DNA of 64,000 nt. Source: Halodesulfurarchaeum sp. (GTDB lineage Archaea > Halobacteriota > Halobacteria > Halobacteriales > Halobacteriaceae). The DNA lies in NCBI GenBank assembly GCA_034520565.1, contig JAXHNL010000001.1:81482-145481 (forward strand), given 5' to 3'. The notes beneath the pieces are model-generated. The model was not told where the DNA came from, ran no database searches, and worked only from the letters and a program-made list of their open reading frames with translations. Position numbers and translations under genes: made by a program. This document shows, piece after piece, positions 1,095-55,963 of the stretch (position 1 is the stretch's first letter; the number at the start of each line of letters is the position of its first letter).

Positions 1095-1683
1095 CGTCAA
1101 GCGCTTCGTTCGCCAGTTCGTCGGCGCGTTCGTTCGTTTCTCGGGGGACGTGTTTGATCGCGTATTCCCCAAACTCCGAGAGCAATTCGTGGACTCGGAC
1201 TCGATACTCCCGAAGGGTCGGATCGTTCGTGTTCCAGGCCCCGGAGACCTGCTTGACGATGAGTTCCGAGTCGCCTCGAATCTCGGCTTCGTCGTAGCCG
1301 TACCGAACGGCGACCTCGAGACCGCGAATTAGTGCCTCGTACTCGGCCTGGTTGTTCGTGGCGCGGCCGATCGTTTCACCCCCTTCGTCCACGATTCCGT
1401 CGCCGTCCACGAGAACCCACCCGACGGCGGATGGGCCGGGATTCCCCCGACACGCACCGTCGAAGTAGACGTAAACACGGCCGCTACCGTCCGCGGCCAG
1501 CACGGAGGTGATATCGACCGGTCGTTTCCCTTGCACCACGAGGCTGTCCTCGTAAGCGACCGCGTGGGCCTCCCCGAGGTCCGCGTGGTATCGCTCGTGC
1601 TCGGTCTTTCCCGGCAAGATGGTCGCTCCTGCGTCTTCCAGCTCCGCTCTTGCCGCCTCGACGTCGCACTCCAGGACCGGCAT
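1087..1683 (-). CDS. rnhA: Ribonuclease HI
   Basis: YFDGACRGNPG, ATNNQAEY, GDSELIVKQ and HVPRETNERADELAN motifs; start taken at MPVLECD. Confidence 0.93.
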   Translation of the reverse strand: MPVLECDVEAARAELEDAGATILPGKTEHERYHADLGEAHAVAYEDSLVVQGKRPVDITSVLAADGSGRVYVYFDGACRGNPGPSAVGWVLVDGDGIVDEGGETIGRATNNQAEYEALIRGLEVAVRYGYDEAEIRGDSELIVKQVSGAWNTNDPTLREYRVRVHELLSEFGEYAIKHVPRETNERADELANEALDDA

Positions 1684-1859
1684 CGGTTCCGAATCGGCGA
1701 CCGACACACAAGTAAGCGCCGGAACCCGAGAGCCGTTCAGCATCGGTACACGGATCGTTTCAGGGACAGCGAGTGTCGTTTCGCGATTCTGTCGCTCACC
1801 GGAGGTAACGACCGAGGCAACGGGTTTATGAAGGTCGAGACTGCTACTATAAAAGTGCA

Positions 1860-2820
1860 ATGACACGGTCCACCCGCCAGCGGGAGCGACAAGCGGCCGA
1901 GACCGAGGAGTCAAAAGAGGACGTCCGGGAGTGTCCCGAATGTGGCTCCGAGGAGCTGGTCAAAAGCTCCGACCGGGGGGAGCTCGTTTGTAACGAGTGT
2001 GGGCTCGTCCTCGAAGAGGAAAAGATCGACCCCGGCCCGGAGTGGCGCGCCTTCAACCATCAGGAGCGTCAGGAAAAGTCCCGCGTGGGGGCCCCGACGA
2101 CCCAGACGATGCACGACAAGGGGCTGACGACCACAATCGACTGGAAGGACAAGGACGCCTACGGGCGCTCGATCTCCTCGAAGAAACGAAGCCAGATGCA
2201 CCGGCTGCGAAAGTGGCAGGAACGCATCCGGACCAAGGACGCCGGCGAACGCAACCTCCAGTTCGCACTCTCGCGAGATCGACCGCATGGCGAGCGCGCT
2301 CGGGGTTCCGCGTTCGGTCCGGGAAGTCGCCTCCGTCATATATCGACGCGCCCTCAAGGAAGATCTCATTCGCGGGCGCTCGATCGAGGGTGTCGCGACG
2401 TCAGCACTGTATGCCTCCTGCCGGAAGGAAGGCATCCCCCGGAGTCTCGAGGAGATTTCCGAAGTATCACGGGTCGAGCGCAAGGAGATCGGCCGAACCT
2501 ACCGATACGTCTCCCAGGAACTCGGCCTCGAGATGGAGCCGGTCGACCCGAAGAAGTACGTCCCTCGCTTTTGCTCCGAACTCGAACTCTCCGAGGAGGT
2601 CCAGTCCAAGGCCAACGAGATCATCGAGACGACCGCGGAGAAGGGACTGCTCTCGGGCAAGTCCCCGACCGGCTACGCGGCCGCCGCGATATACGCCGCC
2701 TCGCTTCTGTGTAACGAGAAGAAGACTCAAAGGGAGGTCGCAGACGTCGCCCAGGTAACCGAGGTGACGATCCGGAATCGGTACCAGGAGCAGATCGAAG
2801 CGATGGGCATCCATCACTGA
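1860..2820 (+). CDS. tfb: Transcription initiation factor IIB (TFB); one-base frameshift near 2275
   Basis: Zn ribbon CPECGS...[15 protein letters not shown] and [10 protein letters not shown] in ORF 1860; cyclin repeats ([31 protein letters not shown]) continue in another frame to 2820. Confidence 0.93.
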
Positions 2821-2920
2821 TTCCTGGCGGGTGGATCGACACGAAGTGGCGTACTGGCTGTGGACTGGGCGGAATGCGGGAAACGAAGCCGTTTTGACGG
2901 GCCGAAGTGTCCAGTGAGCC

Positions 2921-3619
2921 ATGAGCGGGCCGTGGACACAGTGGGATCACGTCCTCAAGGTCGATCCCGACAAGGAACTCGCCGAGGGAGACACCTTCGC
3001 GGACGTCTGTACGAGTGGGACCGATGCCATCGAGATCGGCGGCACCACCGGCATGACCGAGGAGAAAATGGAACAGGTCGTTTCGGCCTGCCGGGAATAC
3101 GACATCCCGCTCTTCCAGGAGCCCTCGAATCCGGGCGTGGTCATCAGGGATCCGGGACTCGACGGCTATCTCATCCCGACGGTGTTCAACGCCGGGGACC
3201 CCTTCTGGATCACCGGCGCCCACAAGGAATGGGCGCGGATCGACGAAATCGACTGGGACCGGACCTACACCGAGGCCTATGTCGTCCTCAATCCGGAGGC
3301 CTCGGTCGCCTCTTATACGGAGGCCAACTGCGACCTCGACGACGACGAGGTGGCCGCCTACGCCTCGATCGCGGAACGGCTCTTCGGCCAGGACATCGTC
3401 TACCTCGAATATTCGGGCATGCTGGGCGATCCCGAGACCGTCGGGACCGCCGCTGAGGCGCTCGACGAGTCGACCCTCTTTTACGGTGGCGGGATTCGCG
3501 ATTACGAGTCGGCCAAGACGATGGGGGCCGTCGCTGACGTCGTCGTTGTCGGCGACCTGGTTCACGAGGAGGGCGTCGCGGCCGTCGAGGAGACGGTCCG
3601 GGGCGCCAAGGAAGCCTGA
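2921..3619 (+). CDS. Geranylgeranylglyceryl/heptaprenylglyceryl phosphate synthase (PcrB family)
   Basis: [19 protein letters not shown] and FYGGGIRD motifs. Confidence 0.9.
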
Positions 3620-3705
3620 CCGGGGCCCGATCCGACGCCACCCTCCCCGAAATCGGCCAACCGAAATACGGGCGTTTAAGAGCGATCCGGAGTGTAGTTG
3701 GGCCC

Positions 3706-5010
3706 ATGCGAGACCGGACACACGCTGCAGACGCCGAACCCGGCATGGAGGCCACGATCGCCGGGTGGGTTCACGAGATACGCGACCTCGGGGGGATCGC
3801 CTTTCTGATCCTCCGAGATCGAACGGGCAAGATTCAGGTGAAATTCGAGAAGGACGAACTGGAAGCGGACCTCGTCGACCGCGCGCTCTCCGTCCACCGC
3901 GAGAGCGTGATCCAGGTGACCGGAACGGTCTTCGAAGAAGACCGGGCGCCAACGGGCGTCGAAATCGTTCCCGAAACTTTTGACGTGATCGCCAAGGCCG
4001 ATCCCGAACTCCCGCTTGACCCCTCGGGCAAGGTCGGCGCCGAACTCTCGACCCGCCTCGACAACCGGACACTCGATCTCCGCCGGGACGAGACCCGGGC
4101 CATCTTTGAGATTCGAAGCGAAGTACTTCGAGCCGGGCGCGAGACGTTCCGCGACCTGGGCGGCACCGAGATCACGACCCCGAAGATCGTCGCCACCGGA
4201 ACCGAAGGCGGTACCGAACTCTTCCCCATCACGTACTTCGGCCGCGAAGCGTTCATGAACCAATCCCCACAGCTCTTCAAGCAGCTGCTCGCGGCCTCCG
4301 GCCTCGAACGGGTGTTCGAGATCGGACCGATCTTTCGCGCGGAGGAGCACAACACGCCACGTCACCTGAACGAGGCGACCAGCATCGACTTCGAGAGCGC
4401 CTTCATCGACGCCGACGAGGCGATGGACGTCGCCGAAACCTTCGTCAGGTCGGTGTACGAGGCAGTTGGGTCGAACTGTGCCGCTCAGCTCGAAACGCTG
4501 GGACTCGCGAATTCCTTCGAGGTCCCGGCGGACGACTTCCCGCGGATCACCTACGAGGAGGCCATCCAGCAGGCGAACGCGACAGGCGTGGTCGACGAGC
4601 AACTCGTCTGGGGTGACGACCTCCCCACCGAGGCCGAGAAGGCACTGGGCGAGGAGATCGGTCAACATTACTTCATCACGAACTGGCCATCCGAGGTCAA
4701 GCCGTTCTACATCAAGGACGAGGACGACGACCCGGACGTGTCGACTGGATTCGACCTGAACCACCCCCGGATGGAACTCGTTTCCGGGGGTCAGCGCGAA
4801 CACCGCTACGACGAGCTGGTTGAGGGCTTCGAGGCCCAGGGTCTCGACCCGGCCGCCTTCGAGTACTACACCAAGATGTTCAAGTACGGAATGCCGCCAC
4901 ACGCCGGCTGGGGAATGGGTGCCGAGCGGCTCCTCGTCACGATGCTCGATCTCGACAACATCAGGGAGGCCGTCCTCTTCCCGCGGGACCGAACGCGGCT
5001 CTCGCCGTAG
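3706..5010 (+). CDS. aspS: Aspartyl-tRNA synthetase (archaeal type)
   Basis: OB fold [11 protein letters not shown]; motifs [36 protein letters not shown]. Confidence 0.97.
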
Positions 5011-5899: not shown

Positions 5900-6656
5900 A
5901 TGACCGACGCCGCGGAGATTCCCGCCGACCATCCGCGCCACGATTCGCTACTCACGCGACACCGAATCGAGGCCGGCGTCGAGAAGGGGATCACGAGCAA
6001 GCAGGGATTGATCGCACAGGGCCGGGGGGAGGCCTTCGATTACCTGTTGGGCGAGCGGACCATTCCCAGCGCCGACCGTGCCGAACGCGCGGCAGCCGCG
6101 ACCCTGCTCGACGCCGAAACCCCCGTACTGAGCGTCAACGGCAACGTGGCTGCACTCGTGCCGGAGGCGATCGTGGAACTCGCCTCGGTCGTGGACGCCG
6201 CCCTCGAGATCAACCTGTTCAACCGGACCGAATCCCGGATGGCCGCGATCGAGTCCCACCTCGAGGCACATGGAGCCGAGCACGTCAAGGGGCGTGCCGC
6301 CGACGCCCGAATACCCGGCCTCTCCCACGAACGAGCCAAGGTCGATGCCGACGGCATTTACGCGGCCGACGTGGTGCTCGTCCCGCTCGAGGACGGCGAT
6401 CGGGCCGAAGCCCTCGCCGAGATGGGAAAAACCGAGATCGTGATCGATCTAAACCCGCTCTCCCGGTCGGCTCAGGTCGCGGCCATCCCGATCGTCGACA
6501 ACATCATCCGGGCGATTCCCCGGATGGTCGAACACGCCGCGCGAACTCGAGGCAGCCGGCCCGGACACCCGGGAGGAAGCACGGACGGCTTTCGACAGGG
6601 ACGCCGCGCTTCGTGACGCGGAGGCGACGATCCGGGAGCACTTCGGGGCGTCCTGA
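5900..6656 (+). CDS. 4-phosphopantoate--beta-alanine ligase; frameshift near 6540
   Basis: HPRHDSL, GRGEAFDYLLGE, VPLEDGDR, DLNPLSRS; a plausible acidic C-terminus (RELEAAG...FGAS*) lies in a shifted frame ending at 6656. Confidence 0.88.
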
Positions 6657-6663
6657 GCAATTG

Positions 6664-7584
6664 TCAGCCCGGAAACCGTGCTTTCGCGACGTCCCTGGCC
6701 TTTCTGGCGACTTCGACGGCCGTCGGCCCGAGCAAGTAGACGATCGGTTCGACGCCGACGGCGCCGCGATGGTAGAGGACGGTGGTCTGGGGGGTCGCTG
6801 CGATCGCTTCGGAAACGGCAGCCTCGAGTGACTGGTTCTCGATGTGTAGTTCCACGACGGTGGTTTCCCGCTCGAGGAGCGCATCGAGTGTCTCCGGCGT
6901 GAACGCGAGGTTCAATCCCGCTTTCGCTTCGCTTCCCGCCCCGCGGGCTGCGAGCAACACGCCCCCGACGTACTCGCTGACGCCGAACTCGGGCTCCCCG
7001 GGCACTTCCACGCGGCCATTTACGTCGAGAATCCGACCGGGGACGCCCACGACGTCCTCGAGGGCCGAGGCCGATTCGAGAACTTCGACGAGATTCGACC
7101 CGACGTGGGGAACGAGCCCGGCGAACCTGGTCGCGTGTTCAAGGATTCGAAGGCCCCGACGAACCGAGGCTCTGGCCCGTTCCCGTTCGAGGGCGCCCTG
7201 ATCGGGTTCGAAGGAGTCGAGGTCGTACTCGACGGTTCTGAGTTCGGGGACGGCTTCCTCGTGGAGTTCGGCGACGAGATCGCCCGGCCCCGAAAGTGTT
7301 CCGAGGAGCCGTTCGATCTCGATGAGCGCCTGGACCGGCCGAACGTCACCGGTCGCCAGCCCTGGAGTGAGGTCGGCGACGAGTTCCTGGACGCGCTCGT
7401 CTCGGGCCACCGCGTCGCTCGTGGCGATCTCGCCCTGCGCGTACTTCGAGACCGCACTCTGGCTGAGGCCGAGCTTCTCGGCCACCTCGTGTTGGGTGAG
7501 TCCGCGTTCGCGGAGTTCGCTCGCGAGCATGGCCCTGATCGTCGGGAGCACCGACTCGGCGATGACCTCCGCGCGGAACTTCAC
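6664..7584 (-). CDS. HTH plus ThiN-like domain transcriptional regulator (ThiR-like)
   Basis: N-terminal HTH ([20 protein letters not shown]); ThiN-like [22 protein letters not shown]. Confidence 0.8.
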
Positions 7585-8180
7585 TGCTGCTCACCCGCCT
7601 CCGGGTCGAATTCGACGTCGTCTCCGATCCGCGAGGCCGCCGGGCCGCCCTGGTCCTGGTACTTCGAACCCCGCTCGGAACCGTAGGGGGATTCGGCCGG
7701 GCTGGAGAGTTCGGTAAAGACGATCTGGGAGATGCGCATGCCGGGGGTGAGCGCCACTGGAGCGGTCCCGAGATTGGAGAGTTCGAGGGTTATACGCCCT
7801 CTAAAACCCGGATCTACAAATCCGGCTGTGGCATGCACTACCACGGCAAGTCGCCCCAGCGAGGACCGCCCCTCGACTTGCGCGACCAGGTCGTCCGGAA
7901 TTTCCACCCGCTCTTTGGTCGTGCCGAGGACGAAATCTCCCGGATGAAGGATGAACTCCTCGCCCTCCTCGATGAGGGTCTCGCTGACGTAATCCCCGAC
8001 CTGATTCTCCTCCTGGGGATGAATGCTCGGGATGTTCGTTCGTCTGAATTCGAGGAACTCCGTGCCCAGCCGCACGTCGATACTCGCGGGCTGGATCTGG
8101 AGGTCGGGATCGGAGAGGGGCTCGACGACGAGGTCGCCGTCTTCGAGCCGGGAGCGGATGTCGCGGTCCGAGAGGATCAT
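7581..8180 (-). CDS. dcd: dCTP deaminase
   Basis: [42 protein letters not shown]. Confidence 0.95.
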
Positions 8181-8290
8181 GCAATGATCCCCGGGCCTGA
8201 TTGCCTTAAGGATACGTGATTGCCCCGATGTCCCCCTCGACTATTCAGCCAAAGGACACCTCTAAGGGCCCCGAATCACAGAGTGATCGC

Positions 8291-8629
8291 ATGAAGCAGG
8301 CCATCGTCGTCCGATCGGACCTGGGGATGGGCACTGGAAAACTCGCGGCCCAGGTTGCCCACGCCGCGCTTTCGGCCGTCGAACACGCCACCGACGACAC
8401 CGTGCGGCAGTGGAAACGGGCGGGACAGCGCAAGGTCGTCCTCAAAATCGACGGTGAGCGGGCGCTCTTCGAAATACAGGAGAAGGCAAAGACGGCGGGA
8501 CTCCCGACAGGCCTGATCCGTGACGCCGGCCGAACGCAACTCGACCCGGACACCCCGACCACCGTCGCCGTCGGCCCCGCGAGCGACGAGGCAGTCGACC
8601 GCATCACCGGCTCGCTCTCGCTTTACTGA
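8291..8629 (+). CDS. pth2: Peptidyl-tRNA hydrolase Pth2
   Basis: [25 protein letters not shown] and DAGRTQ. Confidence 0.93.
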
Positions 8630-8680
8630 AGAGATCGGGTAGCGAGCGTGTTTTGCCCCCTGCACTCGAAACCCGGACAA

Positions 8681-10000
8681 ATGCGCCCGGCCCACGAGGA
8701 CGAACGCCCCTACGGAATCGAGTGGTATGCGAGCGACTCGGCCGGCGTCGGCGGACGGCTCCGTGACCGGCCAGAAGATTTCCGGGTGCGCGAGCGCGAG
8801 CGGTTCGACGTGGAGCCAATCGACGCCGATCCGGGGGATTACCCCTGGATCGTGCTCCGGGTCACCCTCGAGAACACGGACACGAACGACTTCGCACGGG
8901 AACTGTCGAATCGACTCTCGATCAGTCGCGAGCGGGTTGGCTGGGCCGGCACGAAGGACAAGCGGGCGGTCTCGACCCAACTGTTCTCCGTTCGTGGAGT
9001 CGATCCCGCGGCAGTCCCCGAAATCGGCGGCGCAACGATCGACGTGGTGGGTCGGGCCGGGCGTGGACTGGGTTTCGGCGATCTTCTCGGCAACGAGTTC
9101 GAGATCGTCGTCCGGGATCCCGATGCCCCCGAGCGAGTGGCGGAGATTACCGCGGAACTCGAGGCACAGTTCGGCGGCCGGGCTGGCGTCCCGAACTACT
9201 TCGGCCATCAGCGCTTCGGCAGCTATCGCTCGATTACCCACGAGGTCGGGCTGGCGATCCTGCGACGGGACTGGGAGGGTGCCGTGATGGCCTATCTCGG
9301 AAATCCAAGCCCCGAGGAGCCCCCGGCCTCGAGTGCGGCCCGGGAGTTCGTCGAGGAAACCCGGGACTGGGAGGTCGCCCTCGACCGGTTCCCGAATCGG
9401 TTGCGCTACGAACGGGCGATGTTGCACGACTTACACGAGTCGGACGGCGAATCCGCGGCGGACTATCGATCGGCTCTGGAGACCTTTCCCGAGAACCTCC
9501 GTCGGCTCTTCGTCAACGCCGCCCAGTCCCTGCTATTCAACGAAGTGCTGAGCCGGCGGTTCGAGGCCGGACTCCCGTTCCACGAGCCGGTCGCGGGGGA
9601 CGTCGTCGCCTTCGCGGACACGGACGCTCCGGCTGATTTCCCGCTTCCCGACGTCGATCGGATCCAGCGCGTTGGGGCGGGACAAACCGACGTGTTGACA
9701 CGGCACTGCGAGCGGGACCGGGCGTTCGTCACAGCCCCGCTTGTCGGGACCGAGACCGAGCTTGCCGAAGGAGAGCCGGGTGAAATCGAGCGGGCAGTGC
9801 TCGACGAGCACGACATCGAACCCGACGATTTCGACCTCCCCGAGCCGTATCACTCCACGGGAACCCGTCGGGCGATTCTGGTTCGAATCGAGCCCACGAT
9901 CGACTTCGGGCCTCTCACCTTCGAGTTCGGCCTGCCGAAGGGGAGTTACGCGACGGTGTTCCTGCGGGAATATCTGAAGGTGTCTCCGCTGAAGATGTGA
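8681..10000 (+). CDS. truD: tRNA pseudouridine(13) synthase
   Basis: [47 protein letters not shown]. Confidence 0.95.
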
Positions 10001-46919: not shown

Positions 46920-49106
46920 TTAGAAGTAGTTGATGCTCTCGGGAAGCTCGGTCTTCATGCCCTTGCGCTCGCGGATCTCGGTGATCTTCTCGGGCTGGAG
47001 GTTGTCGACGAGCACGCGGAAGCCGGCGTTCTCCGTGTTCCAGGAGGCCCGGCCCTCGGTCGCCGACCGGATGTCCGAGGAGAACCCGATCATTTCCCCG
47101 ACCGGTGCGATCCCCTCGACGACCATCAGGTCGCCCTCCTGATACATGTCGTCGACGCGGCCACGTCGACCCTGAATCTCGCCGGAGGCCGCGCCCATGT
47201 GCTCGGACGGAACGTCGATGCGGACGTCCTGGATCGGCTCGAGCAGCCGGATCTGGCCGTCGATCAGGGCGCGGTGAACCGCCTCGCGCATCGCCGGGAT
47301 GACCTGGGCCGGCCCGCGGTGGATGGCGTCTTCGTGGAGTCGGGCGTCGTGCAGCCGCACCAGCGCACCTTCGACCGGCTCTGCGGCGAGCGGGCCGTCT
47401 TCGAGCGCCTCTTCGAGGCCCTCGATGATGAGTTCCATCGTCTCGTTGAGGTGCTGAATCCCCTTCGTGTCGTCGATGAAGACGTTGGTGCCGATGATGT
47501 CCTCGACGTCCTGGGAGGTCTCTTTCTCCATCCCTGCCTCCTGGAGGGCCTCACGGCGCTCCTGCTCGGGCATGTCCATGGAGGCTTCGCCGAGTTTGAT
47601 CGTGTCGACGATCTCCTCGCCGAGGGGCTCGACCGTGACGTAGAAGCGGTTGTGGCGGTTCGGCGAAATGCCCTGCACTTCCTCGGACTCCTGGGTCGGG
47701 GCCTCGCGGTAGACGACGATCGGTTCACCGGTGCGGACCGGAATGCCCTGGTTGCGCTCGATGCGCTGGGTGATGACCTCGAGGTGGAGTTCGCCCTGTC
47801 CGGAGATGAGGTGCTCGCCGGTGTCCTCGTTGATCTCCACGCCGATGGTCGGGTCCTCCTTCGAGACCTGCTGGAGGACCTCGATCAACTTCGGGAGGTC
47901 GTCCATCTTCTGGGCCTCGATGGACTTCGTAATGACCGGCTCGGAGATGTGTTCGATGGACTCGAACGGTGTCATCTCGACGGAGGAGACCGTCGAACCG
48001 GCGATGGCGTCTTTCAGGCCGGTGACGGACGCGACGTTCCCGGCCGGAACTTCGGCGACCTCCTCTCGCTCGCCGCCCATGAAGACCCCGACCGACTGCA
48101 AACGGTTTTTCCCGGCGGTCCCGGAGACGTAGAGTTCCTGGCCTTCCTGAAGCGTTCCGGAGAAGACCCGGCCCGTGGCGATCTCGCCGGCGTGCGGGTC
48201 CATGGAGATGTCCGTGACCATGAACACGACCTCGCCGTCCTTGTTGACGTGCTGCATGTCCTTGGCGAGCTGGGAGTCGGGGTCGCCACGCCAGATAGTG
48301 GGAATCCGGTCGGGTTGCGCGTCGACCGGGTTCGGGAAGTGCTCGGCGACCATGTCGAGGACGACGTTCGAGAGCGGGGACTGCTCGTGCAGCTCCACGC
48401 GCTTGTCGTTTCGCTCCATCTTGATGACGTCCCCGAAGTCGATGCCCGTCGCGGCCATCGAGGGGGCGCTGATCGCCCAGTTGTACAGGGCCGACCCGAA
48501 CGCGACGGTACCGTCCTGGACGCTGACCTTCCAGTTGTCCTCCTCGTAGCGTTCCTCTGCCATCCCACGGATGAGCTCGTTGACGTCTCGGATGACGTTC
48601 TGGAGGCGCTCCTGCATCTCCTCGGGGCCCTCCTGCAGCTCGTTGATCAGGCGGTCGACCTTGTTGATGAACAGGGCCGGTTTGACGTTCTCCCGCAGGG
48701 CCTGCCGGACGACCGTCTCGGTCTGGGGCATCGTCCCCTCGACGGCGTCGACGACCACGAGCGCCCCGTCAACCGCGCGCATCGCCCGCGTGACGTCGCC
48801 ACCGAAGTCGACGTGACCGGGGGTGTCGATGAGGTTGACGAGGTAGTTGGTGTCCTGGTACTCGTGGGTCATCGAGACGTTCGCCGCGTCGATGGTGATG
48901 CCACGTTCCTGTTCGTCCTCCTCGGTGTCCATCGCCAGTTGCTCGCCGGCGAGGTCGTCGGAGATCATGCCGGCCCCCGCGAGAAGGTTGTCGGTCAGCG
49001 TGGTTTTGCCGTGATCGATGTGAGCGGCGATCGCGATGTTCCGGATCTGGTCCGGATGATCCATGAGCCGCTCACACTGTTCGACGATTTTCTTGCGTCG
49101 GCCCAT
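46920..49106 (-). CDS. fusA: Elongation factor 2 (aEF-2)
   Basis: [45 protein letters not shown]. Confidence 0.98.
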
Positions 49107-49310
49107 TGTTAACCCGTAGTTCCCCGCGCCGGTTCAAAAGGGTAGTGTTTCCTGCTGAGGCGCCGGTATGGGTACACGCACCAAAGACCGCCAGCACGCA
49201 CAGGGCAATGGCGGGCCGGGCTGGAGTCGGTTCACTGCTATTGCAAGAGATCGGTTTCGGGATTTCTCGCTGGTTGTATAGAAACGTATTAGATCGAATA
49301 CATGTGTCAA

Positions 49311-49337
49311 TGCTGAATAGAACGCGCATATCTTGCG
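49311..49337 (-). repeat. 27-bp putative recombination site L1
   Basis: TGCTGAATA-gaacgcgca-TATCTTGCG. Confidence 0.7.
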
Positions 49338-49440
49338 CAGTCTTCTATGGTGTGCTTGTCGAACTATAGCAGTTTAGTAGTCACAAGCGAAATCAGGAAA
49401 AGCCAATTACTAACCCTAGAAACATACGGCGGTCACTCTA

Positions 49441-51201
49441 TCACTCCTCAGATCCCTTTTCGTCATTTGAAGTACCGACTGGTAGCCAAAACGTTACCAC
49501 ACACCCACGGGGCTTGTTGTCGGTAATCGCCAATTCCCCGCCGAGTGTTTTTGCGGACCACTCCATTATCCACAGGCCAACCCCGAGACTGTGACCCAGA
49601 GGGGTTTGCTCGGCTGACTGGATTGCCTTCCGTTCGAATTCGGACATCCCCGGACCATTGTCAGCGATAGTTATTTGAATTTGATCGCCGTCCCGGTCTC
49701 GTTGGACCGTGATCGACACTTTCGGTGGGGACTGGTCAGTGTGTTGGATTGCGTTTGAGACGGCCTCATCCATCGCATTCTTGAACAACGCTGTGTTTCG
49801 AATCTGAATGTCTCCGATATCCCCAACCGTACAGCTGATTTCTGCCCCCGGATACTGTCGCTGATATGTTTCGAAAAATGACACCATATCGGGCCGTTCC
49901 CACTTCTCACGAACTTTGGCCAAATCCCTGATTGAGCTGATCTTCCCCGTCTTCTCACCGATCTTTTGCATCGATGCGGCCTGGTCTCGAATCGCCGCGA
50001 CCGACGCCCTGCGAGCATTCGGGTCCAACTCCCCGTCTTCCAATAACGCTGCGTGCCCGTCGATGACGGTAATCGCGCTTCGCAAGTTGTGGCGTATCAC
50101 ACGATTCATAACGTCAAGTGCCTTCCTCGTGAGCACGTTCTCAGTGACGTCTTCAATAATTCCCACAAAGTGGGTTATTTCGTCGTCCACATCCCAAACC
50201 GGGGTGATGGTTTGTTTGGCCTCGTATAATTCACCGTATTTCGTCTTGTTCACAATTTCTGCGTCCCAAACATCACCCGCGGTAATCGTTTCCCATAGCT
50301 CCGCGTAGAATTCGTCGTCCTGCTGGCCAGATTTGAGGATTCTCGGGTTCCGACCGATTGCTTCGGCAGCCGTATATTCGTTCAATCGCTCGAAGGTGGG
50401 ATTAACGTATTGGATCGTTCCATCCAAGTCGGTAATCACGATAGCTTTCTCGGACTCCTCGGCATGTGCTTTGAACAAGGAGAGATCCTGTTCCTGTTGC
50501 TTTTTAGCGGTGATGTCCTGTTGGTAGCCGAGATAGTTCGTGACTGTTCCGGAGTCGTCCCGGACCGGGATAATAGTGACACGGTTCCAGAACATCGAGC
50601 CGTCTTTTCGATAGTTTCGTAACTCGACAGAGACGGGCTCTTCAGCATCAATTGATTCTCGCATTTGCGCCACTGGCTCCTCACGTGTGGCTTCACCCTG
50701 GAGAAACCGACAGTTCCGGCCCAGGATTTCCTCACGGTCGTAACCGGTTATCTTGCAGAACCCATCGTTAACATGGATGAGTGGATTGTGGGGCTGGGAT
50801 GGGTCCGAAACTGTGATACCGATGGGGGCTTCGTCTATTTCCTCACCCTGGAGTAGTTGCTCTGGGCTCGCATATCTATCGGTCAGCGGAAACACTGAGG
50901 TTTGGACGTGTTGACTGCCCTCCCACGTGGTCATCGAACTCACGGCGATGACTTCAGTTGGGTCGGGAGCCGTGTCGAGTTTGAGAGTGAGGCCACGGGC
51001 AGAAGCCTCCCCGTTTTCGATTACCGAAATCTGTTCGCGGAGTGGAGTATGATAGTCAGTGTCAACTATATCCAGCAAAGACATGCCGACAAGTTCTGCC
51101 GGTGAATCTACATCGATAAATGAACAAAATGTGGAGTTAGCATAGACGATCTCAGTCCCGGAATGTACGAGAAATGAATCGGGCATAGAATTAGAGCCCA
51201 T
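49441..51201 (-). CDS. PAS/LOV/PAS sensor histidine kinase
   Basis: LOV signature GRNCRFLQG and NYRKDG; further PAS with GRNPRILKSG; H-box RHNLR; N-box EAVSNAIQH; DNGPG; GVGLW; start uncertain. Confidence 0.92.
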   Translation of the reverse strand: MGSNSMPDSFLVHSGTEIVYANSTFCSFIDVDSPAELVGMSLLDIVDTDYHTPLREQISVIENGEASARGLTLKLDTAPDPTEVIAVSSMTTWEGSQHVQTSVFPLTDRYASPEQLLQGEEIDEAPIGITVSDPSQPHNPLIHVNDGFCKITGYDREEILGRNCRFLQGEATREEPVAQMRESIDAEEPVSVELRNYRKDGSMFWNRVTIIPVRDDSGTVTNYLGYQQDITAKKQQEQDLSLFKAHAEESEKAIVITDLDGTIQYVNPTFERLNEYTAAEAIGRNPRILKSGQQDDEFYAELWETITAGDVWDAEIVNKTKYGELYEAKQTITPVWDVDDEITHFVGIIEDVTENVLTRKALDVMNRVIRHNLRSAITVIDGHAALLEDGELDPNARRASVAAIRDQAASMQKIGEKTGKISSIRDLAKVREKWERPDMVSFFETYQRQYPGAEISCTVGDIGDIQIRNTALFKNAMDEAVSNAIQHTDQSPPKVSITVQRDRDGDQIQITIADNGPGMSEFERKAIQSAEQTPLGHSLGVGLWIMEWSAKTLGGELAITDNKPRGCVVTFWLPVGTSNDEKGSEE

Positions 51202-51307
51202 ATGTGACTTTATGTCACCCAACGGGATATAGTTTTAGCAGTCCACCCTGGAAAATGTGTCTAACCATGTGCGAAAGATAGGGCCTCTGTGCTGCATACA
51301 CACTCTA

Positions 51308-52286
51308 GGCCTTGTTTAGACGACTGAAATCACTGGGTAGAACCCTCAATGCCGCGTTCGATGTTTCGGACCGCGGATTTCATGACAAGTTCGCGGAATT
51401 GACCGAACCAGGTTCTCGACCAGAGCGTGTCTCCATATCTGCGCCGGAGACCGAAAAACACCGATTCAGCGTTCGAGCGTTGGTGATACGCCCGATCATG
51501 GATGAGCAAGTTTCTCGCCCATCCCCGCATCCCAGGGTCTCGCTGCGGAATCAACGGTGTGATATGTTCCGCACGCAACCGCGTGCGAAGCTCCTCCCAG
51601 TCGTAGCCCTTATCGGCCGCGAGAGTGCTCAATGCGTCGAGATTCCGGGTTAGCACCTGCCAGCCAACCTGTGTATCGTGTGGTTGTTTCATCGAACAGT
51701 GTATATCTAGGATCGCACTCGTCTCACAATCGACCAGCAGCGTCGTCTTCACCGCTTCGAACGTGTAGTCCGTCCGTTTCGCGTAATGCTGGCTGGCCTG
51801 GACGCGATCCACGCCGGTTGCGTCGATCGCCTGAACATCTCCGAGTTCGTACAGTTCGACCGACGAATCGAGCATCGCTCGCCACCGCTTCATCGGGATC
51901 TCCTGCTTTCTCGCACAGACCGTCGAGAAGTGAGGCAGTGTCTCAACGGTTAATCCAAGCGAATTCGCGACTCTCGGCATCTCACGGAGGACATCCATCA
52001 GCTTCCGGTAATCGTGGTTGAGATACTCTTTGAGCCCTTGAATGGCGAGAATGACCCAGTCGGCATACCCTTCTTCGCCCGGCCGGTATGCCGGCGCTGG
52101 CTGGCCAGCGACGGCTTTTTGAGCGAACGACACGACTGTCTTCGCGAAGCGGGCGGTCTTCGTGAGCACACCGAAACCGTCCCGCTTCACTTCCTAGTAA
52201 ATTTGGTACTTCTCAATATTTACTAGAATGACGATAATAGTTAGATGGGTCCTAACCTCCCCGAATTCAATCGTCTAAACAAGGCC
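51308..52286 (-). mobile_element. IS5-family insertion sequence (ISH1-like group), 979 bp
   Basis: TIR GGCCTTGTTTAGACGA / TCGTCTAAACAAGGCC; 9-bp TSD CACACTCTA at 51299-51307 and 52287-52295. Confidence 0.92.
51330..52190 (-). CDS. IS5-family DDE transposase
   Basis: AIDATG, ADKGYD, YHQRSNAESVF. Confidence 0.92.
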   Translation of the reverse strand: MKRDGFGVLTKTARFAKTVVSFAQKAVAGQPAPAYRPGEEGYADWVILAIQGLKEYLNHDYRKLMDVLREMPRVANSLGLTVETLPHFSTVCARKQEIPMKRWRAMLDSSVELYELGDVQAIDATGVDRVQASQHYAKRTDYTFEAVKTTLLVDCETSAILDIHCSMKQPHDTQVGWQVLTRNLDALSTLAADKGYDWEELRTRLRAEHITPLIPQRDPGMRGWARNLLIHDRAYHQRSNAESVFFGLRRRYGDTLWSRTWFGQFRELVMKSAVRNIERGIEGSTQ

Positions 52287-52343
52287 CACACTCTATATTC
52301 AGCAGTCGGTTTCTGACAAACTTTGAGTAGAACTCAGCGAGCG

Positions 52344-52370
52344 TGCTGAATACAACGCGCGTATGTCGCA
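52344..52370 (-). repeat. 27-bp putative recombination site L2
   Basis: TGCTGAATA-caacgcgcg-TATGTCGCA. Confidence 0.75.
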
Positions 52371-52426
52371 AACCGGGGGGATTAACTCGTGGGATCCGTA
52401 TGTAACGGTAGAGAGGCGATGCACGA

Positions 52427-52783
52427 TTGACGCGGATGTGGGGAATTGATCCTCAGCTGCTCTGTGACCAGCATTTGCTTGGCGAACACACCGAAATGCA
52501 CCAGGCGGTCGGGACGCTCCGGAACCACCCACATGGTGAGGCGATCGTCCGTGGGCATGCCGAGCGACAGCAACTCGATACATCGAAGCTACAGGCCCGA
52601 CATGATGATCTGGCGGACGAACTCGAACGCAGAGGAATGACCCACGACTCGCCAATGAACTACGAAGACACCCACGAGTTGGGCAGCATCAATCCGGAAC
52701 GCAACCGTGCGAACATCCGAAACCGGTGTGACGATTGCCAAAACCGAATCGAAGCAGCGAAAACGGACTCTACTAACAGCTGA
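52427..52783 (+). CDS. Pyrimidine-dimer DNA glycosylase / T4 endonuclease V-like protein
   Basis: MTRMW...LCDQHLLGEHTE aligns with the DenV N-terminus (DQHLxxExxE); RHDDLADELERRGMTH. Confidence 0.75.
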   Translation: MTRMWGIDPQLLCDQHLLGEHTEMHQAVGTLRNHPHGEAIVRGHAERQQLDTSKLQARHDDLADELERRGMTHDSPMNYEDTHELGSINPERNRANIRNRCDDCQNRIEAAKTDSTNS

Positions 52784-52973
52784 TTCGTCGGTCGCCCGGA
52801 ATTGCTGGGATGATTCACCGCCTGGATTCAGGCCTGATAGTTAAACCGGACCGGGACTTTGCCGAGGACACGCACGTCGAGTTTTCGACTCAGGTAGTGC
52901 CCACCAGGCACGTACTCGTTTGGAATCCAAACGCCGGACGAACAGATGACCGCTCAGATTAGCTTGGTTGAAC

Positions 52974-53000
52974 TGCTGCATACAAAGTCTATATTCAGCA
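52974..53000 (+). repeat. 27-bp putative recombination site R2
   Basis: TGCTGCATA-caaagtcta-TATTCAGCA. Confidence 0.8.
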
Positions 53001-53197
53001 TAGTTGAAAATCCATTTGGAATTTGACAATAGATTTGGGTATTACCACTCATCATCCCTCGGAGCGGATGAGTGCTACTACGATCCTAGTGGACTCTAGA
53101 TCAGTTGATCATGCGCCGCAAATTGCTGAATTCGACATTTAATGTCTCCGATTAGCCAACACATTGATTGCACTCGCTTCAGTGTGTCCTACTATAT

Positions 53198-54280
53198 ATG
53201 GCAGGTACTATACAACTCAACGAGGATGAAGGATGCGTAGAGATCCAGAACCTCACCATCGAGGACTCCGACGTCTTCCGGTATCTCCAGGATGTCGAAC
53301 CCGAGGGCCGTGAGGCAGAGGTCCGGAGTATGCTCGCGATGGGTGTTGTCGCCCTTCGAGCTAGTCAGACTGCCGGAGAGATCGATTACGTCGAACGGCG
53401 GTTCTCAGAACTACAGTATAACTTGGAGGGAAAGTTCGAGGACACATTCGGGGAAGAAGGCCATATACGGGAGTACCTCGAGGGTCAGATAGGTGAAGAT
53501 GGCCGGCTCGTGGACGAGCTGTTGAATCCGAATGAGCCAGACTCGCCGATGTACCGACTCAAGAAAGCGATCTCTGACGAATTCGACGAATTGGAGAAGA
53601 ACATCTTCGGGGAGGAGGTCCGGGAGGGGATGGTCGAGAAGACGCCACTCAAAGGCGGAAAATTCGAGGAAGAACTGGAGGACCTACTCGGCGAAGTCGC
53701 CAAAATCCACGGGGACAAACTTACGTTCACGGGAGAGGAACACGGCGAACTCGAGTCAAGCAAGAAGGGTGATTTCGTGGTCGACCTGGGTCGGCCTAAG
53801 GGTCGAATAGCCGTCGAGGCGAAGAACATGTCCTACAACCTCCCTGACATCGAGTCGGAGATGAAGGAGGCAATCCGGAATCGAGAGGCGGATTATGGTC
53901 TCTTCGTAGCACGGTCCATCGACCAGTTACCGAACAAGGTGGGCTGGTTCAACGAATACGATGGAGAATATCTCGTGGTGGCGTTAAGCGAAGGAGATGA
54001 GGCGGAGTCTGCGGATGAGTTGCTGAAGGTTGCCTATCGATGGTCGCGGATGCGGCTTCTCGAGGAGCTGACGCCGACTGGTGAGGATATCGATGTCTCC
54101 GAGATTCAGTCCAAAGTGAAGGCGGCTGAGCGGACGATGGAGGACTTCCGGAATATCCGGACAAAGCTGACGAATATCGAGAAATCGTCGCAGAGTATCC
54201 GGGACATCCTCGGGGAAATTGAATCGGATCTCGATGAGCAGTTGCGGGCGATCAATTCGGAAATCGAAGCCAATGTGTGA
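53198..54280 (+). CDS. Coiled-coil PD-(D/E)XK nuclease-like protein (DUF2130/RmuC-like)
   Basis: KGGKFEE...KKGDFVV...IAVEAKN...NREADYGLFV, flanked by coiled coils. Confidence 0.65.
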   Translation: MAGTIQLNEDEGCVEIQNLTIEDSDVFRYLQDVEPEGREAEVRSMLAMGVVALRASQTAGEIDYVERRFSELQYNLEGKFEDTFGEEGHIREYLEGQIGEDGRLVDELLNPNEPDSPMYRLKKAISDEFDELEKNIFGEEVREGMVEKTPLKGGKFEEELEDLLGEVAKIHGDKLTFTGEEHGELESSKKGDFVVDLGRPKGRIAVEAKNMSYNLPDIESEMKEAIRNREADYGLFVARSIDQLPNKVGWFNEYDGEYLVVALSEGDEAESADELLKVAYRWSRMRLLEELTPTGEDIDVSEIQSKVKAAERTMEDFRNIRTKLTNIEKSSQSIRDILGEIESDLDEQLRAINSEIEANV

Positions 54281-54442
54281 TTTATCCTCCTGGGAGTAGA
54301 AATCACAATTCCCCGTCTGAGCATGGTTAATAGTGTTAGCCCGTTGGGCTATGTTGTGACGAATAGAATTGATTCAAGGCGCCAATCTGGACAGTCATAG
54401 ACCTGTAGAATGCTTATTAGTATCCCATGGTTTGGCTAAGAC

Positions 54443-55075
54443 ATGGAAATCAACGAGGAAATTCAATCTATAGTCAATGACTTCAAGGGAGATCATTGGA
54501 TTATTTCCACGGTCCCGAACAATGGGATAATATTAGCAAATACTGATTTTTCTGAGGTCCTTGAACGAATTTCGGACCTTGGAATTGACGAGATCTACAT
54601 CGTCGTAGACGAATCAATGACTCCGATTGGATTGGCATTTCATCATAATGGGATATTCCATTTGTCAATGGAAAGTGAACCATTCATTAGCTCATCAGCA
54701 TCAACCGAATCCAGATCCAGGCTTGCTTTTGATTCAGACGACAATATAGAGCAGAAACGAGAGATTGCCTCGGAAATAATTGATAGGTATGAGGAGCTAA
54801 TGTCCGATGTACAAGTGGCTGAATTAGAGGGGGACCTTCAATATATGTCGATGAGTCGACTCTACCGTCTGAAGGAGAAGATGGAGGAAAAGCAGAGAAT
54901 TGACGAAAACTTGGAAAAAGAGGCCGCGAAATGGCTTGCAGAGGATGACCGATTCAACCACAATTGCAACGAAACAGATTCTGAAACTCTACTTGAGGCC
55001 AGTGGTGATTTCGCCCTCGATGAAATCCGCATTGAAGAGGTTCACAAGAAGGCTAAGAGTTATCTGAAATTGTGA
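54443..55075 (+). CDS. Hypothetical acidic protein
   Basis: 210-aa ORF with AT-rich codon usage; no recognised motif. Confidence 0.6.
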   Translation: MEINEEIQSIVNDFKGDHWIISTVPNNGIILANTDFSEVLERISDLGIDEIYIVVDESMTPIGLAFHHNGIFHLSMESEPFISSSASTESRSRLAFDSDDNIEQKREIASEIIDRYEELMSDVQVAELEGDLQYMSMSRLYRLKEKMEEKQRIDENLEKEAAKWLAEDDRFNHNCNETDSETLLEASGDFALDEIRIEEVHKKAKSYLKL

Positions 55076-55162
55076 TCTCAATGGTAAAGCGTTTCAAGAA
55101 CTTGCGCCCATTCCATTAATACGAGGGCATCGCATGGGGAGGCCAACTGTTAGGTCTCATCC

Positions 55163-55189
55163 TGCGCGATCCACGCTCTATATTCAGCA
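55163..55189 (+). repeat. 27-bp putative recombination site R3
   Basis: TGCGCGATC-cacgctcta-TATTCAGCA. Confidence 0.7.
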
Positions 55190-55292
55190 CCAACCTAGAG
55201 CCCCTGTCAGTTCTATATTAATTCGTCAGGGACCGAACTGTCCGGGTGAGACGGCCACTGCGATAGAGCCCCAGTGCAGGCTCCCACTTGAT

Positions 55293-55308
55293 GAAAGCGA
55301 AAAAGAAC
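55293..55308 (-). terminator. Putative T-rich archaeal terminator downstream of rps7
   Basis: Minus strand reads GTTCTTTTTCGCTTTC about 20 nt after the stop. Confidence 0.4.
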
Positions 55309-55327
55309 CGAGTTCGAACGGCAGTAC

Positions 55328-55963
55328 TTAGCGAGCCGCGGCCGCGACGCGCTCTTTCTCCTCTTTCTGGTTGACGGCGTAGGTGCTGCACGTCACCCTC
55401 CGCCGCGCCGATGAGCTGCTGGGCGAGTGCCTCCTCGACGTCGGTGGGCGTCTTGAACGAGGCGCTGTAGGTGCCCTCCGCGAGGAACTTCAGCGCCTGG
55501 TCGACCCGGCGCTGAGGGCCCGTATCGACGGCCTTCGGGACCGAGATCCCGCCGTACTTCAGGCGAACGGTCTCCTCGCGAGGGGCGGCGTTCTCGATCG
55601 CACGGACGAGGACCTGCACCGGGTTCTCGCCAGTCCGCTCGTGAACGATTTCGAAGGCCTCGCGGACGATCCTGAGGCGTTTGCTGCTTCTTGCCGGTGT
55701 TCTCCTCGGTCTGCATCAGCCGGTTGATGAGGCGCTCGACCACGCTGATCTCGGACTTCTTGAACTGCTTTGCCGGCGTGGCGGCCCATCGTGTGGGCGA
55801 CCGGTGTCACGGTGATGTACCGACGAGTGCTCGGATCCGTGTACTGGATGCCCGTGACGTCCCAACGACCGAACAACTGGGCGACGGCCGCTTCTTCCTC
55901 TTCGACCGCCTCGGCATCGGACTCCGTTTCCTCGACGTCGGCCTCGGGTTCTTCCTCGGCCAT
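55328..55963 (-). CDS. rps7: 30S ribosomal protein S7; three apparent single-base frameshifts (~55770, ~55676, ~55385)
   Basis: [43 protein letters not shown] and the C-terminal ERVAAAAR* are distributed across frames. Confidence 0.9.

Follow-up and report, generated by a model that had tools for sequence, protein, structure and literature searches.

The fusA and rps7 genes of the genome analysed here are separated by a 5.9-kb island of ~50% GC in a genome of ~65% GC, bounded by five short sites, which raises the question of what these sites are and whether they delimit DNA that moves. Within the window, i.e., the whole 64-kb stretch of DNA that was analysed, GC runs at ~40-57% inside the island versus 61-67% in its flanks. 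The arm sequence TATTCAGCA occurs five times in the window (at 49311 and 52344 on the minus strand and at 52296, 52992 and 55181 on the plus strand), where dinucleotide shuffles give an expectation of 0.03 and five or more copies in 0 of 100 shuffles, and 14 times in the whole 1.86-Mb genome (G000, 81% complete). The original prediction held that gene cassettes are shuffled here at dif-like sites by a host XerA-like enzyme. We found that mobile units bounded by the sites are indeed present, whereas the link to dif and XerA, the alternating orientation of the sites and the lack of a dedicated integrase did not hold up. The island is probably a three-cassette array belonging to a site-specific gene-cassette system of Halobacteria; its parts are listed in Table 1.

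Table 1. Parts of the array and flanking host genes, in window coordinates.
Feature	Coordinates	Strand	Basis
fusA (EF-2), host gene flanking the island	46920..49106	-	Pfam GTP_EFTU, EFG_IV and related domains
L1, class-L 27-bp site, array end on the fusA side	49311..49337	-	PWM 37.2 as class L
Cassette 1 cargo: 593-aa sensor histidine kinase with PAS domains	49441..51222	-	Pfam PAS_9, PAS, HisKA, HATPase_c
R1, one half: arm and 9-bp spacer copy, separated by the IS	51290..51307	-	
979-bp IS inside R1	51308..52286	-	ends GGCCTTGTTTAGACG; Pfam DDE_Tnp_1
R1, other half: spacer copy and arm TATTCAGCA	52287..52304	-	
39-bp linker of the R1/L2 junction, linker type A	52305..52343	-	aligns with 8 other junctions of the genome
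L2, class-L site	52344..52370	-	PWM 38.1
Cassette 2 cargo: 118-aa pyrimidine-dimer DNA glycosylase (DenV-like)	52427..52783	+	Pfam Pyr_excise, E 5e-14
R2, class-R site	52974..53000	-	PWM 31.4 as class R; exact fit to motif pattern
Long degenerate linker (123 bp), then L3 at 53124-53150	53001..53150	-	
Cassette 3 cargo, two ORFs	53168..55075	+	370 aa (53168-54280); 210 aa (54443-55075)
R3, class-R site, array end on the rps7 side	55163..55189	-	PWM 22.3 as class R
rps7 (3' part), host gene flanking the island	55329..55619	-	Pfam Ribosomal_S7; comparison with relatives

The sites are quasi-palindromes of 27 bp, TGCnnnATA-N9-TATnnnGCA, in which two inverted half-sites TGCnnnATA surround a 9-bp spacer (readable as 9-9-9 or 10-7-10); with inverted arms and a short spacer, the sites are built like the core sites of tyrosine recombinases, as had been proposed. 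The spacers form two classes, L (YGCGCnnTS) and R (TAGAS.. or CAGAS..), and an L and an R site separated by 39 bp make up a ~93-bp junction, such junctions lying between cassettes in direct orientation. Elsewhere in the genome, nine junction copies can be aligned over ~95 columns; an nhmmer search of the genome recovered 10 strong copies (E < 1e-6), along with additional half sites. The copies fall in six clusters, each a 45-57% GC block in the ~65% GC background, and the genome holds at least six low-GC islands of this kind, with a varied accessory cargo that comprises five His kinases, DenV, PNPOx, MFS, CAAX proteases, LiaF-like, Fic, glyoxalase and unknowns. Cassettes carry one to three genes in either orientation, with sites at both unit ends regardless of gene orientation; a cassette has spacers of unlike class on its two sides, and flanking duplications are absent. 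When oriented by their spacers, the sites run in a uniform direction throughout an array, and every junction of a cluster lies on one strand, in this genome and in its relatives. The strict alternation described earlier results from orienting the sites by their better-conserved arm; L and R, standing 39 bp apart, make up one conserved junction. We also observed solo sites and one R-39-R pair, which the model does not predict in detail.

In the window, L1 reads CGCAAGATA-TGCGCGTTC-TATTCAGCA and L2 reads TGCGACATA-CGCGCGTTG-TATTCAGCA on the minus strand, and all the 9-9-9 layouts quoted in the original prediction are present as written, R1 being split by the IS. The two spacer classes that it distinguished were recovered by PWM, which calls L1 and L2 class L (37-38) and R2 and R3 class R (31 and 22), while the degenerate L3 placed at 53124 proved degenerate at best, with its outer arm alone recognisable and no PWM match of 9 or above. 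L1 is a half junction that matches positions 3-35 only of the junction HMM, and the R1/L2 junction yields a CM match at 52287-52371 with 57.9 bits. The IS, which encodes a 286-aa DDE transposase (51330-52190), interrupts R1 precisely at the spacer, which it has duplicated as its 9-bp target, CACACTCTA (duplication 9/9, both arms 6/6); the IS recurs in a different site of the window's genome (second copy) and in genome G181 (third copy). Altogether, the 9-bp spacer is the exact insertion point of two DDE IS families. The terminal inverted repeats and target duplication of a DDE transposon were found at this IS and not at the cassettes, and, as stated in the original prediction, no target duplications flanking the units were seen at the window array. 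Homologues of the cassette 1 kinase occur in three genomes of other families (75-78% nucleotide identity), copies of the DenV cassette that are 91% identical lie at two other places, both in genome G008, and the cassette 3 ORFs gave zero matches in Pfam, PADLOC and NCBIfam. The ends of the island are not clean, additional non-homologous stretches separating the end sites from the host genes, and the same was observed at a second island of this genome (G000:C2:1288960-1296950).

The junction CM matches 29 of 61 related genomes, from many families, and the bare motif 24 of 61 (reversed control, 0 of 61), all spacers listed for the bare-motif matches being of class L or class R. Full junctions occur in the named cultured strains Haloferax profundi, Natronolimnohabitans innermongolicus and Saliphagus sp. 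At the rps7-fusA locus, comparison with relatives showed the two genes directly adjoining, without an insert, in G001 and G010, and inserts of differing sizes in four more genomes of the genus. A 3477-bp cassette segment is 99% identical between the G001 chromosome and a 170-kb contig of G010, with unrelated neighbours on both sides. The identity starts within an R site, with mismatches concentrated in its left arm, its spacer and the first base of its right arm (a breakpoint on the R side that represents one comparison), and stops after base 5 of an L spacer. Three more comparisons, two of the DenV cassette and one of a PHO4 cassette, break in or just after the L spacer, as had been anticipated; the homology of the window's DenV cassette with its two G008 copies ends in or just after L2. 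Since the G001 and G010 cargo is 99% identical and its neighbours differ on both sides, the comparison shows that cargo moved relative to its surroundings, with breakpoints inside the sites; comparison likewise shows the sites, the junctions, the array organisation and their spread across genomes. A circular or excised form was not seen. An alternative joint of the window island was found in none of the contigs of four public runs, although contigs cannot show rare forms.

These breakpoints bear on whether the palindromes act as folded DNA. It is highly improbable that the units are IS200/IS605- or PATE-like single-strand or rolling-circle elements, with L and R as near-end hairpins cut by an HUH enzyme. 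In its favour stand similar palindromes in direct orientation at both unit ends, with neither terminal inverted repeats of the unit nor target duplication; with the linker assigned to R, the 5' distance exceeds the 3' distance, one R site carries a double compensatory change, and other elements enter the palindromes, as for the haloarchaeal IS605-type elements in the excerpted text of PMC3119063. However, the breakpoints lie in the spacer and not outside the palindromes, and searches for the Y1 transposase (PF01797) found none in G000 (81% complete), G008 (98% complete, 33 junctions) and G042 (99% complete, 18 junctions). Nor did we see meaningful arm covariation: pairing within sites reaches 68.1% versus 66.9% in column shuffles, the outer arms of junctions pair at 67.1% versus 66.1%, pairing across the linker does not rise above that of shuffles, and about half of the sites have mismatched stem centres. 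Because arm pairing does not exceed that of column shuffles, the substrate would probably be double-stranded DNA rather than hairpins. A folded single strand of the attC kind was likewise rejected, with pairing within sites, across the linker and between outer arms all at shuffle level.

We then considered which enzyme could act on the sites. Pfam searches of the five main ORFs of the island returned a DDE transposase and no recombinase, and every PF00589 match of the window's genome lies on another contig, so the statement that no integrase is encoded in the island stands for the window, together with its corollary that the island would need an enzyme in trans; it fails elsewhere, where the gene of a 234-aa recombinase lies between L and R. 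The original prediction assigned the sites to host XerA, as dif- or pdif-like sites of the sort used by Xer-exploiting elements and the pdif modules of Acinetobacter, a reading that we regard as very unlikely. In its favour, inverted arms flank a short spacer, the window island is without a recombinase, an XerA orthologue is present in the window's genome (and in 55 of 61 genomes, including 35 of 35 of high quality), the nearest structures to the recombinase described below are Xer proteins, and the excerpted text of a 2026 paper (PMC13532300) describes many xerA homologues in Halobacteriales whose sites are unknown. Yet the motif was not found in 37 of the 61 genomes, nearly all of which have XerA, which argues against a mimic of a chromosomal dif accompanying host Xer (motif in 24 of 61). 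The sites measure 27 bp (9-9-9) versus the 28-bp dif format (11-6-11), variants with 4-8 bp spacers were not found as a single host site in five complete genomes (one match, unrelated-looking), and a dedicated recombinase gene lies between L and R elsewhere.

This gene, sInt, which in other genomes and in metagenomes replaces the 39-bp linker, encodes a 234-aa tyrosine recombinase with a catalytic domain only. Among seven close homologues in relatives (>=63% identity), six are accompanied by a site, 67-86 bp ahead of the start, 44 bp past the stop or both; within 5 kb of four distant homologues (40-52% identity), there is none. Of 38 metagenome loci, we examined 29, dropping nine short partial matches, and 25 were testable: a site lies <=150 bp past the sInt stop in 23 of the 25 and 20-200 bp ahead of its start in 18. 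At the threshold used, the site PWM matches by chance at ~8 hits per 600 kb of strand. Across these loci, comparison shows a physical linkage of sInt to the sites at the level of sequence. Moreover, the match of the junction HMM next to the sInt gene covers L and the first ~10-30 nt of the linker at 16 of 26 loci, and the R-side matches include the last linker bases. Because the junction matches beside the gene keep both linker ends, the linker looks like an internal deletion of an sInt module.

The protein matches PF00589 (E 2e-14) and presents the tyrosine recombinase residues R-K-H-R-(H/W)-Y and a catalytic-domain fold, with R61, K124, H181, R184, W207 and Y216 and a Cys cluster (C92, C94 and C97) invariant (residues counted over 27 sequences). 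The best structural matches of its model (pLDDT 82.7) in Foldseek are XerA (E 3e-6) and integron integrase (E 1e-4), and sInt looks like an active tyrosine recombinase. FimB and FimE are similarly small recombinases (~200 aa) without a separate N-terminal core-binding domain that act on short inverted repeats; they invert a promoter segment, unlike sInt with its Cys cluster and its tie to cassette arrays. We did not find sInt in the window's genome at its 81% completeness, nor in G001, G019 and G042 (each 99% complete, with 3 to 18 junctions), and, since such junction-bearing genomes have none found, arrays persist without it. Junctions are present in 7 of 14 sInt-positive genomes, a phyletic link that is weak at the family level, and sInt itself could be cargo or could belong to a separate element that merely targets these sites. 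The linkage to a recombinase gene also weakens the proposal that the palindromes are transcription-factor operators or terminators of imported genes, with islands acquired by homologous recombination through conserved flanks. Although the palindromes are intergenic, an R site 60-67 bp upstream of the sInt start could serve as an operator and the rps7 and fusA flanks are strongly conserved, this proposal is extremely unlikely, as shared-cassette identity breaks inside the sites, which occupy both unit ends whatever the gene orientation and are confined to low-GC islands.

The retention of both module ends in the linker lends itself to another explanation, namely that what moves is the junction module, comprising between the inner arms either the sInt gene or its 39-bp miniature. 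The module would be a small tyrosine-recombinase transposon that inserts into pre-existing palindromic sites, with the miniatures as non-autonomous derivatives, and the cargo between copies would be passive or move only as a composite. In favour of this explanation, the miniature retains the module ends in the way that a MITE retains those of its IS, and the inner arms are inverted repeats, without a mismatch at the R1/L2 junction of the window. An element of this kind may already be described in Haloquadratum walsbyi, as the ~110-bp SMR-A repeats: in the excerpted text of Dyall-Smith et al. 2011 (PMC3119063), these have prominent inverted terminal repeats, lack target duplication and insert within palindromes, which other elements also enter, and their mobilisation is termed enigmatic. 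An L half site also occurs in a Haloquadratum record. In the same excerpt, however, SMR-A is reported as insertions into transposon ends, not as cassette boundaries, and no recombinase is linked to it. Furthermore, the cargo shared by G001 and G010 moved between different neighbours, the spacers fall into two conserved classes, L and R, rather than being duplicated or random target sequence, and the outer arms do not covary as expected of one former palindrome. We therefore hold this explanation to be unlikely.

Returning to the cassette reading, the arrays resemble integrons in that cassettes of diverse accessory genes alternate with imperfectly palindromic sites of ~60-140 bp, all facing one way, and in that sInt falls in the Xer/IntI structural neighbourhood. 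Clusters of attC sites without an integrase exist and are comparable to arrays without a nearby recombinase. The arrays differ from integrons in that sInt lacks an IntI signature (21 bits, where the NCBIfam integron-integrase model has a cut-off of 265), its gene lies inside the attachment site instead of beside a fixed attI, cassettes hold one to three genes in either orientation, and two core sites of double-strand type replace the folded attC. An integron with an IntI-type integrase beside attI was rejected on the score under that model and because no recombinase lies in or beside the window island. A paper on archaeal integrons contains no word starting with 'Halobacter'. The pdif modules, or IMEX, are gene modules between short core sites with one arm better conserved, often without a recombinase inside; the units here share such sites with one conserved and one variable arm, but these are not copies of host dif, have a 9-bp (or 7-bp) centre and come in two spacer classes in direct orientation with a dedicated recombinase. 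In cassette exchange with heterospecific lox or FRT sites, shared arms carry different spacers, and two like-with-like crossovers swap a segment. This matches the cargo-only identity of G001 and G010, although it is a laboratory design rather than a natural family, and the incompatibility of L and R here is putative. The novelty claimed in the original prediction agrees with the literature searched, in which we found no description of this cassette system.

With moderate confidence, we propose that cassettes undergo site-specific exchange by sInt, acting in trans at the window island; that sInt is the acting enzyme, and which site pairs react, we infer from sequence. Dimers of sInt would bind the sites and exchange strands in or beside the spacer, and the two spacer classes should not recombine with each other. 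Integration by a single, simple crossover would leave identical spacers at both sides; as the L and R spacers differ, the pathway would require either two events or some unusual reaction. Events of L with L and R with R would move or swap the DNA lying between R and the next L, and the junction would be a gene-less miniature of the sInt-carrying L/R module. As the window island encodes no recombinase, its cassettes would be either fixed or moved by sInt arriving on another replicon. Any existing site could let an array grow there, and arrays on chromosomes and plasmids would exchange cassettes, in what looks like an integron-like, hitherto undescribed system of gene exchange among salt-loving archaea.

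Five copies of the nonamer TATTCAGCA lie in the window, where shuffled sequence would yield 0.03, and the whole 1.86-Mb source genome (G000, 81% complete) has 14. The 9-bp arm, 9-bp spacer, 9-bp arm layout described in the original prediction is present at all five sites; of the additional site it had named L3, a position-weight scan finds only a barely recognisable remnant. Every site is a quasi-palindrome of the form TGCnnnATA-N9-TATnnnGCA, and two spacer classes can be told apart: class L (YGCGCnnTS), in which the GCGC core is conserved as well as the arms, and class R (TAGAS.. or CAGAS..). The arms themselves come in flavours that differ at positions 4-6 (AAG, TGA or TGC). Moreover, the conserved repeat exceeds the single site: with all genome copies put in one register, a 39-bp linker is seen to connect class L to class R in a junction of ~93 bp. 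The strictly alternating orientation originally ascribed to the sites proved to be a product of orienting them by their better-conserved arm; when oriented by spacer, they point in one direction throughout the array. Read on the minus strand, the array thus comprises R3, cargo, the degenerate L3 with a long linker and R2, cargo, the L2-linker-R1 junction (with an insertion sequence, IS, in R1), cargo and L1. The island has a GC content of 40-57%, compared to 61-67% around it, and is placed between fusA and rps7. As had been noted from the outset, no recombinase is encoded among its genes, and the cargo ORFs of the third cassette matched no family in Pfam, PADLOC or NCBIfam.

Coordinates of the sites, islands and genes considered here (L followed by three digits, extracted locus; C, contig; G, genome)
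Feature	Location	Coordinates	Remark
Island	window	49311-55189	ORFs: PAS histidine kinase; DDE transposase; DenV-like glycosylase; two ORFs without family
TATTCAGCA copies	window	49311(-), 52296(+), 52344(-), 52992(+), 55181(+)	
Degenerate L3	window	53124	
fusA	window	46920-49106	
rps7-fusA gap	window	49107-55328	
Additional base in rps7	window	55380-55390	GGTGCTGCAC against GGTCTGCAC in relatives
Low-GC stretch	L001 (G000:C1)	1000-4000 (6000-9000)	~26% GC; genome 62%, cassettes ~50%
Adjoining cassette island	G000:C1	9500-12900	
Second island	G000:C2	1288960-1296950	empty sites in G005 and G008
Island of ~40% GC	G000:C2	517500-532500	15 kb
Integrase gene therein	G000:C2	524701-525843	
Recombinase fragment therein	G000:C2	530086-530277	189-aa type
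Palindrome therein	G000:C2	527678	near-perfect, of related build, between convergent genes
Second Xer-like recombinase gene	L103 (G000:C2)	2138-3134 (709137-710133)	in-frame TAG leaves ORFs of 179 and 143 aa; top PF00589 score in genome
Class-R site pair	L099 (G008:C38)	7596-7688	
G019 array cargo	L036	11210-11964	
2.1-kb IS	L038	13788-15897	
2.1-kb IS	L040	11157-13266	
Empty site of 2.1-kb IS	L039 (G019)	~1090-1120	
Larger integrase	G019:C2	100003-101010	
Second small recombinase	G008:C32		189 aa
sInt with Cys cluster	L104	3416-4120	

In G000 as a whole, a profile of the junction found 10 strong copies and several half sites. The copies form six clusters, each confined to one strand and coinciding with a low-GC block, and their cargo is a mixture of accessory genes among which sensor kinases recur most often. 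Across the arrays of G000 and its relatives G008, G010 and G019, sensor histidine kinases (PAS, GAF, 7TM) are by far the commonest cargo, amounting to 16 related ORFs (5 in G000). One cassette island of G000 adjoins a stretch of very low GC content (table).

A sequence-only covariance model of the junction has matches in 29 of 61 related genomes, including 17 of the 35 high-quality ones, covering 20/39 genera and many families. The relatives' arrays also keep a single orientation, with R-only matches first and L-only matches last. The bare motif was detected in 24/61 genomes, and its reversed control in 0/61; all spacers listed for these matches belong to class L or class R. Full junctions are present in the named strains Haloferax profundi SB29, Natronolimnohabitans innermongolicus and a Saliphagus sp. 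A genome-collection scan for GCGCNNTNTATTCAGCA returned at least 80 loci, and among the matches listed most were chance matches in bacteria; only the 14 haloarchaeal ones were used. A BLAST search of the plasmid collection with one junction gave no match, the query being just 99 nt long and hence little informative. Of note, at one locus of G008 two class-R sites follow each other at 66 bp (R-39 bp-R) without intervening cargo; the model proposed below does not predict this in detail, and a cassette once present there may have been lost.

Pairs of related cassettes place the limits of exchange at the sites. A 3477-bp cassette is 99% identical between the chromosome of G001 and a 170-kb contig of G010, yet its surroundings are without any match. 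On its R side, mismatches are concentrated in a stretch from the left arm over the spacer to the first base of the right arm, inward of which identity is perfect; on its L side, the left arm and five bases of the spacer are identical throughout, and the match ends there. Two copies of the window's DenV cassette, each 91% identical to it, occur in G008; homology stops just past the L site in one and within the L spacer in the other. Similarly, the match between the PHO4 cassettes of G019 and G010 stops after five L-spacer bases.

As for the insertion locus itself, rps7 and fusA are neighbours in both G001 and G010, where the matched parts are ~106 bp apart, while the gap measures 164 bp in G008, 0.9-1.3 kb in G006, G004 and G002, and >1.5 kb in G011 (loci L057-L066). 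Since the gap is empty in two genomes and variously filled in the others, this comparison of sequences identifies it as a recurrent insertion point in the genus. The G011 insert includes a segment that shares 90% identity with cargo of a G019 array. No base-exact insertion boundary between rps7 and fusA was found against the relatives, as their intergenic DNA is too diverged. At a second island of G000, empty sites in G005 and G008 indicate that the inserted DNA extends past the outermost recognised sites.

Among contigs from four public runs, the best holder of the window's island shows no alternative joint of it. In another public run, 52308 or 52317 is joined back to ~49311 across 28-37 other letters; these are R-linker-L junctions of other organisms. 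Run X2, which shares its sample with the best holder, contains one low-depth contig in which 53557 is linked to 49311 via 19 other letters. A separate observation concerns rps7, which carries one additional base compared to relatives, so that its last ~22 codons are frameshifted; the true stop would fall near 55329. A contig of the best-holding run is without the base (at 55385), so that an assembly error or a minor variant is the probable cause.

The spacers are also targets of IS elements. The 979-bp IS that splits R1 has duplicated a 9-bp target identical to the spacer, and two unrelated DDE families insert into the spacer with such a duplication. Of 10 copies of the window's ~0.98-kb IS for which both flanks are available, 3 sit in complete sites with a perfect duplication, and some others have one arm-like flank. 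The second family, a 2.1-kb IS with a 623-aa transposase (DDE_Tnp_1_6/DUF772), occupies class-R spacers in G019 and G010, which represent two genera, and its uninterrupted empty site is found in G019. These insertions mark the sites as structurally special targets, and do not thereby indicate the enzyme that moves the cassettes.

The palindromic build of the sites could be read as a conserved hairpin. However, the arms were complementary at 67-68%, whether they were paired inside one site, over the linker or as the outer arms of a junction, compared to 66-67% in column shuffles, the arm centre is mismatched in about half of the sites, and none of three pairing schemes used as hairpin models scored clearly above shuffles. 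Pairing no better than shuffles and mismatched arm centres argue, at the level of sequence, that the palindromy is the shared half-site expected of a dimer on duplex DNA rather than a conserved hairpin.

Which enzyme might act on these sites? The original prediction favoured a dif-like link with a host XerA-like recombinase. An XerA orthologue is universal, yet 37 of the 61 genomes gave no match to the sites, and a search of five complete genomes for a host site with these arms around a shorter spacer found none; the sites are thus not copies of a host dif. G000 itself encodes four tyrosine recombinases, all on the other contig, and no serine recombinase (PF00239) was found in it. One of its Xer-like genes is interrupted by an in-frame stop, and a 15-kb island, which looks like a different integrated element, holds an integrase gene and a recombinase fragment (table). 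A larger multi-copy integrase family lies near some arrays, but it occurs in 20/29 junction-positive and 21/32 junction-negative genomes, and was rejected for want of a phyletic link to the junctions. A second small recombinase type is widespread and unassociated with the sites; Y1 transposases were not found in array-rich genomes, and TnpB genes lie near some sites in no constant arrangement.

The candidate that fits is a 234-aa tyrosine recombinase consisting of a PF00589 domain only, which we termed sInt. Six of its 7 close homologues in the relatives are flanked by sites, located 67-86 bp ahead of the start and/or, as an L site, 44 bp past the stop, and four distant homologues have none within 5 kb. 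Of 38 metagenome contigs encoding sInt, 29 were examined and 9 short matches dropped; a site lies within 150 bp past the stop in 23/25 testable loci and 20-200 bp ahead of the start in 18/25. The gene, in either orientation, sits between the L and R of one junction: in 16/26 loci, the junction profile matched L and the linker's beginning at one flank of the gene; at the opposite flank, it matched R and the last linker bases. As these flanks resemble both ends of the 39-bp linkers, the common junction appears to have arisen from the sInt module by deletion.

All catalytic residues are kept in sInt, and its predicted model folds confidently (pLDDT 82.7), the nearest solved structures being XerA and an integron integrase. 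It also has an invariant Cys cluster (C92 and C94, with C97 in at least 90%; alignment A3), preceded by His-Glu and located between the first catalytic Arg and Lys, which may be a metal site replacing the absent N-terminal DNA-binding domain. The ~390 homologues, which include proteins of Halorientalis regularis, Halogranum amylolyticum and Natronomonas marina, are constant in length and named only 'integrase'. sInt was not found in G000, nor in several complete genomes carrying arrays.

These data fit a recombinase that acts on like sites, with sInt as the putative enzyme. It would exchange strands in or beside the spacer of like sites; L and R, held apart by their spacers, would protect a gene between them from loss, and a segment from R to the next L would be swapped through two like-with-like events. 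The system would belong with site-specific cassette systems. Its working resembles that of integrons and pdif modules, although it lacks the defining features of both, and in form it is similar to the engineered method in which cassettes are exchanged between heterospecific sites. The closest published observation is SMR-A of Haloquadratum, likened here by description and not by sequence: these, among them HqIRS42, HqIRS43 and HqIRS55, are ~110-bp repeats with inverted ends and no target duplication, inserted in palindromes, with 'enigmatic' mobilisation (PMC3119063). According to a 2026 paper, it is not known which sites the Xer-like recombinases of haloarchaea recognise (PMC13532300). Our literature search returned no description of the sites, the junction, the cassette arrays or a role for the sInt family; the supplementary SMR/PATE sequences of PMC3119063, outside that search, might include the junction.

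We thus arrived at a proposal that we hold to be a serious possibility, if slightly short of probable: that Halobacteria own a counterpart of the integron, a natural form of cassette exchange in which a 234-aa recombinase lies inside a two-part L/R site with incompatible spacers, and cassettes of one to three genes, often sensor kinases, are swapped among chromosomes and plasmids and across families. The ~93-bp junctions would then be its gene-less miniatures, as may be the small mobile repeats of Haloquadratum.

Gene exchange is known to be rampant among haloarchaea, but to our knowledge no dedicated cassette-capture machinery has been described in them. If true, the proposal would supply a mechanism for this exchange, with defined sites and a candidate enzyme of a size suited to testing in Haloferax, and possibly, for archaeal genetics, a compact recombinase that has two orthogonal sites. 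It also offers a testable account of how the so far unexplained Haloquadratum repeats move, and the system could explain the small low-GC islands of these genomes and perhaps the expansion of their sensor kinases.
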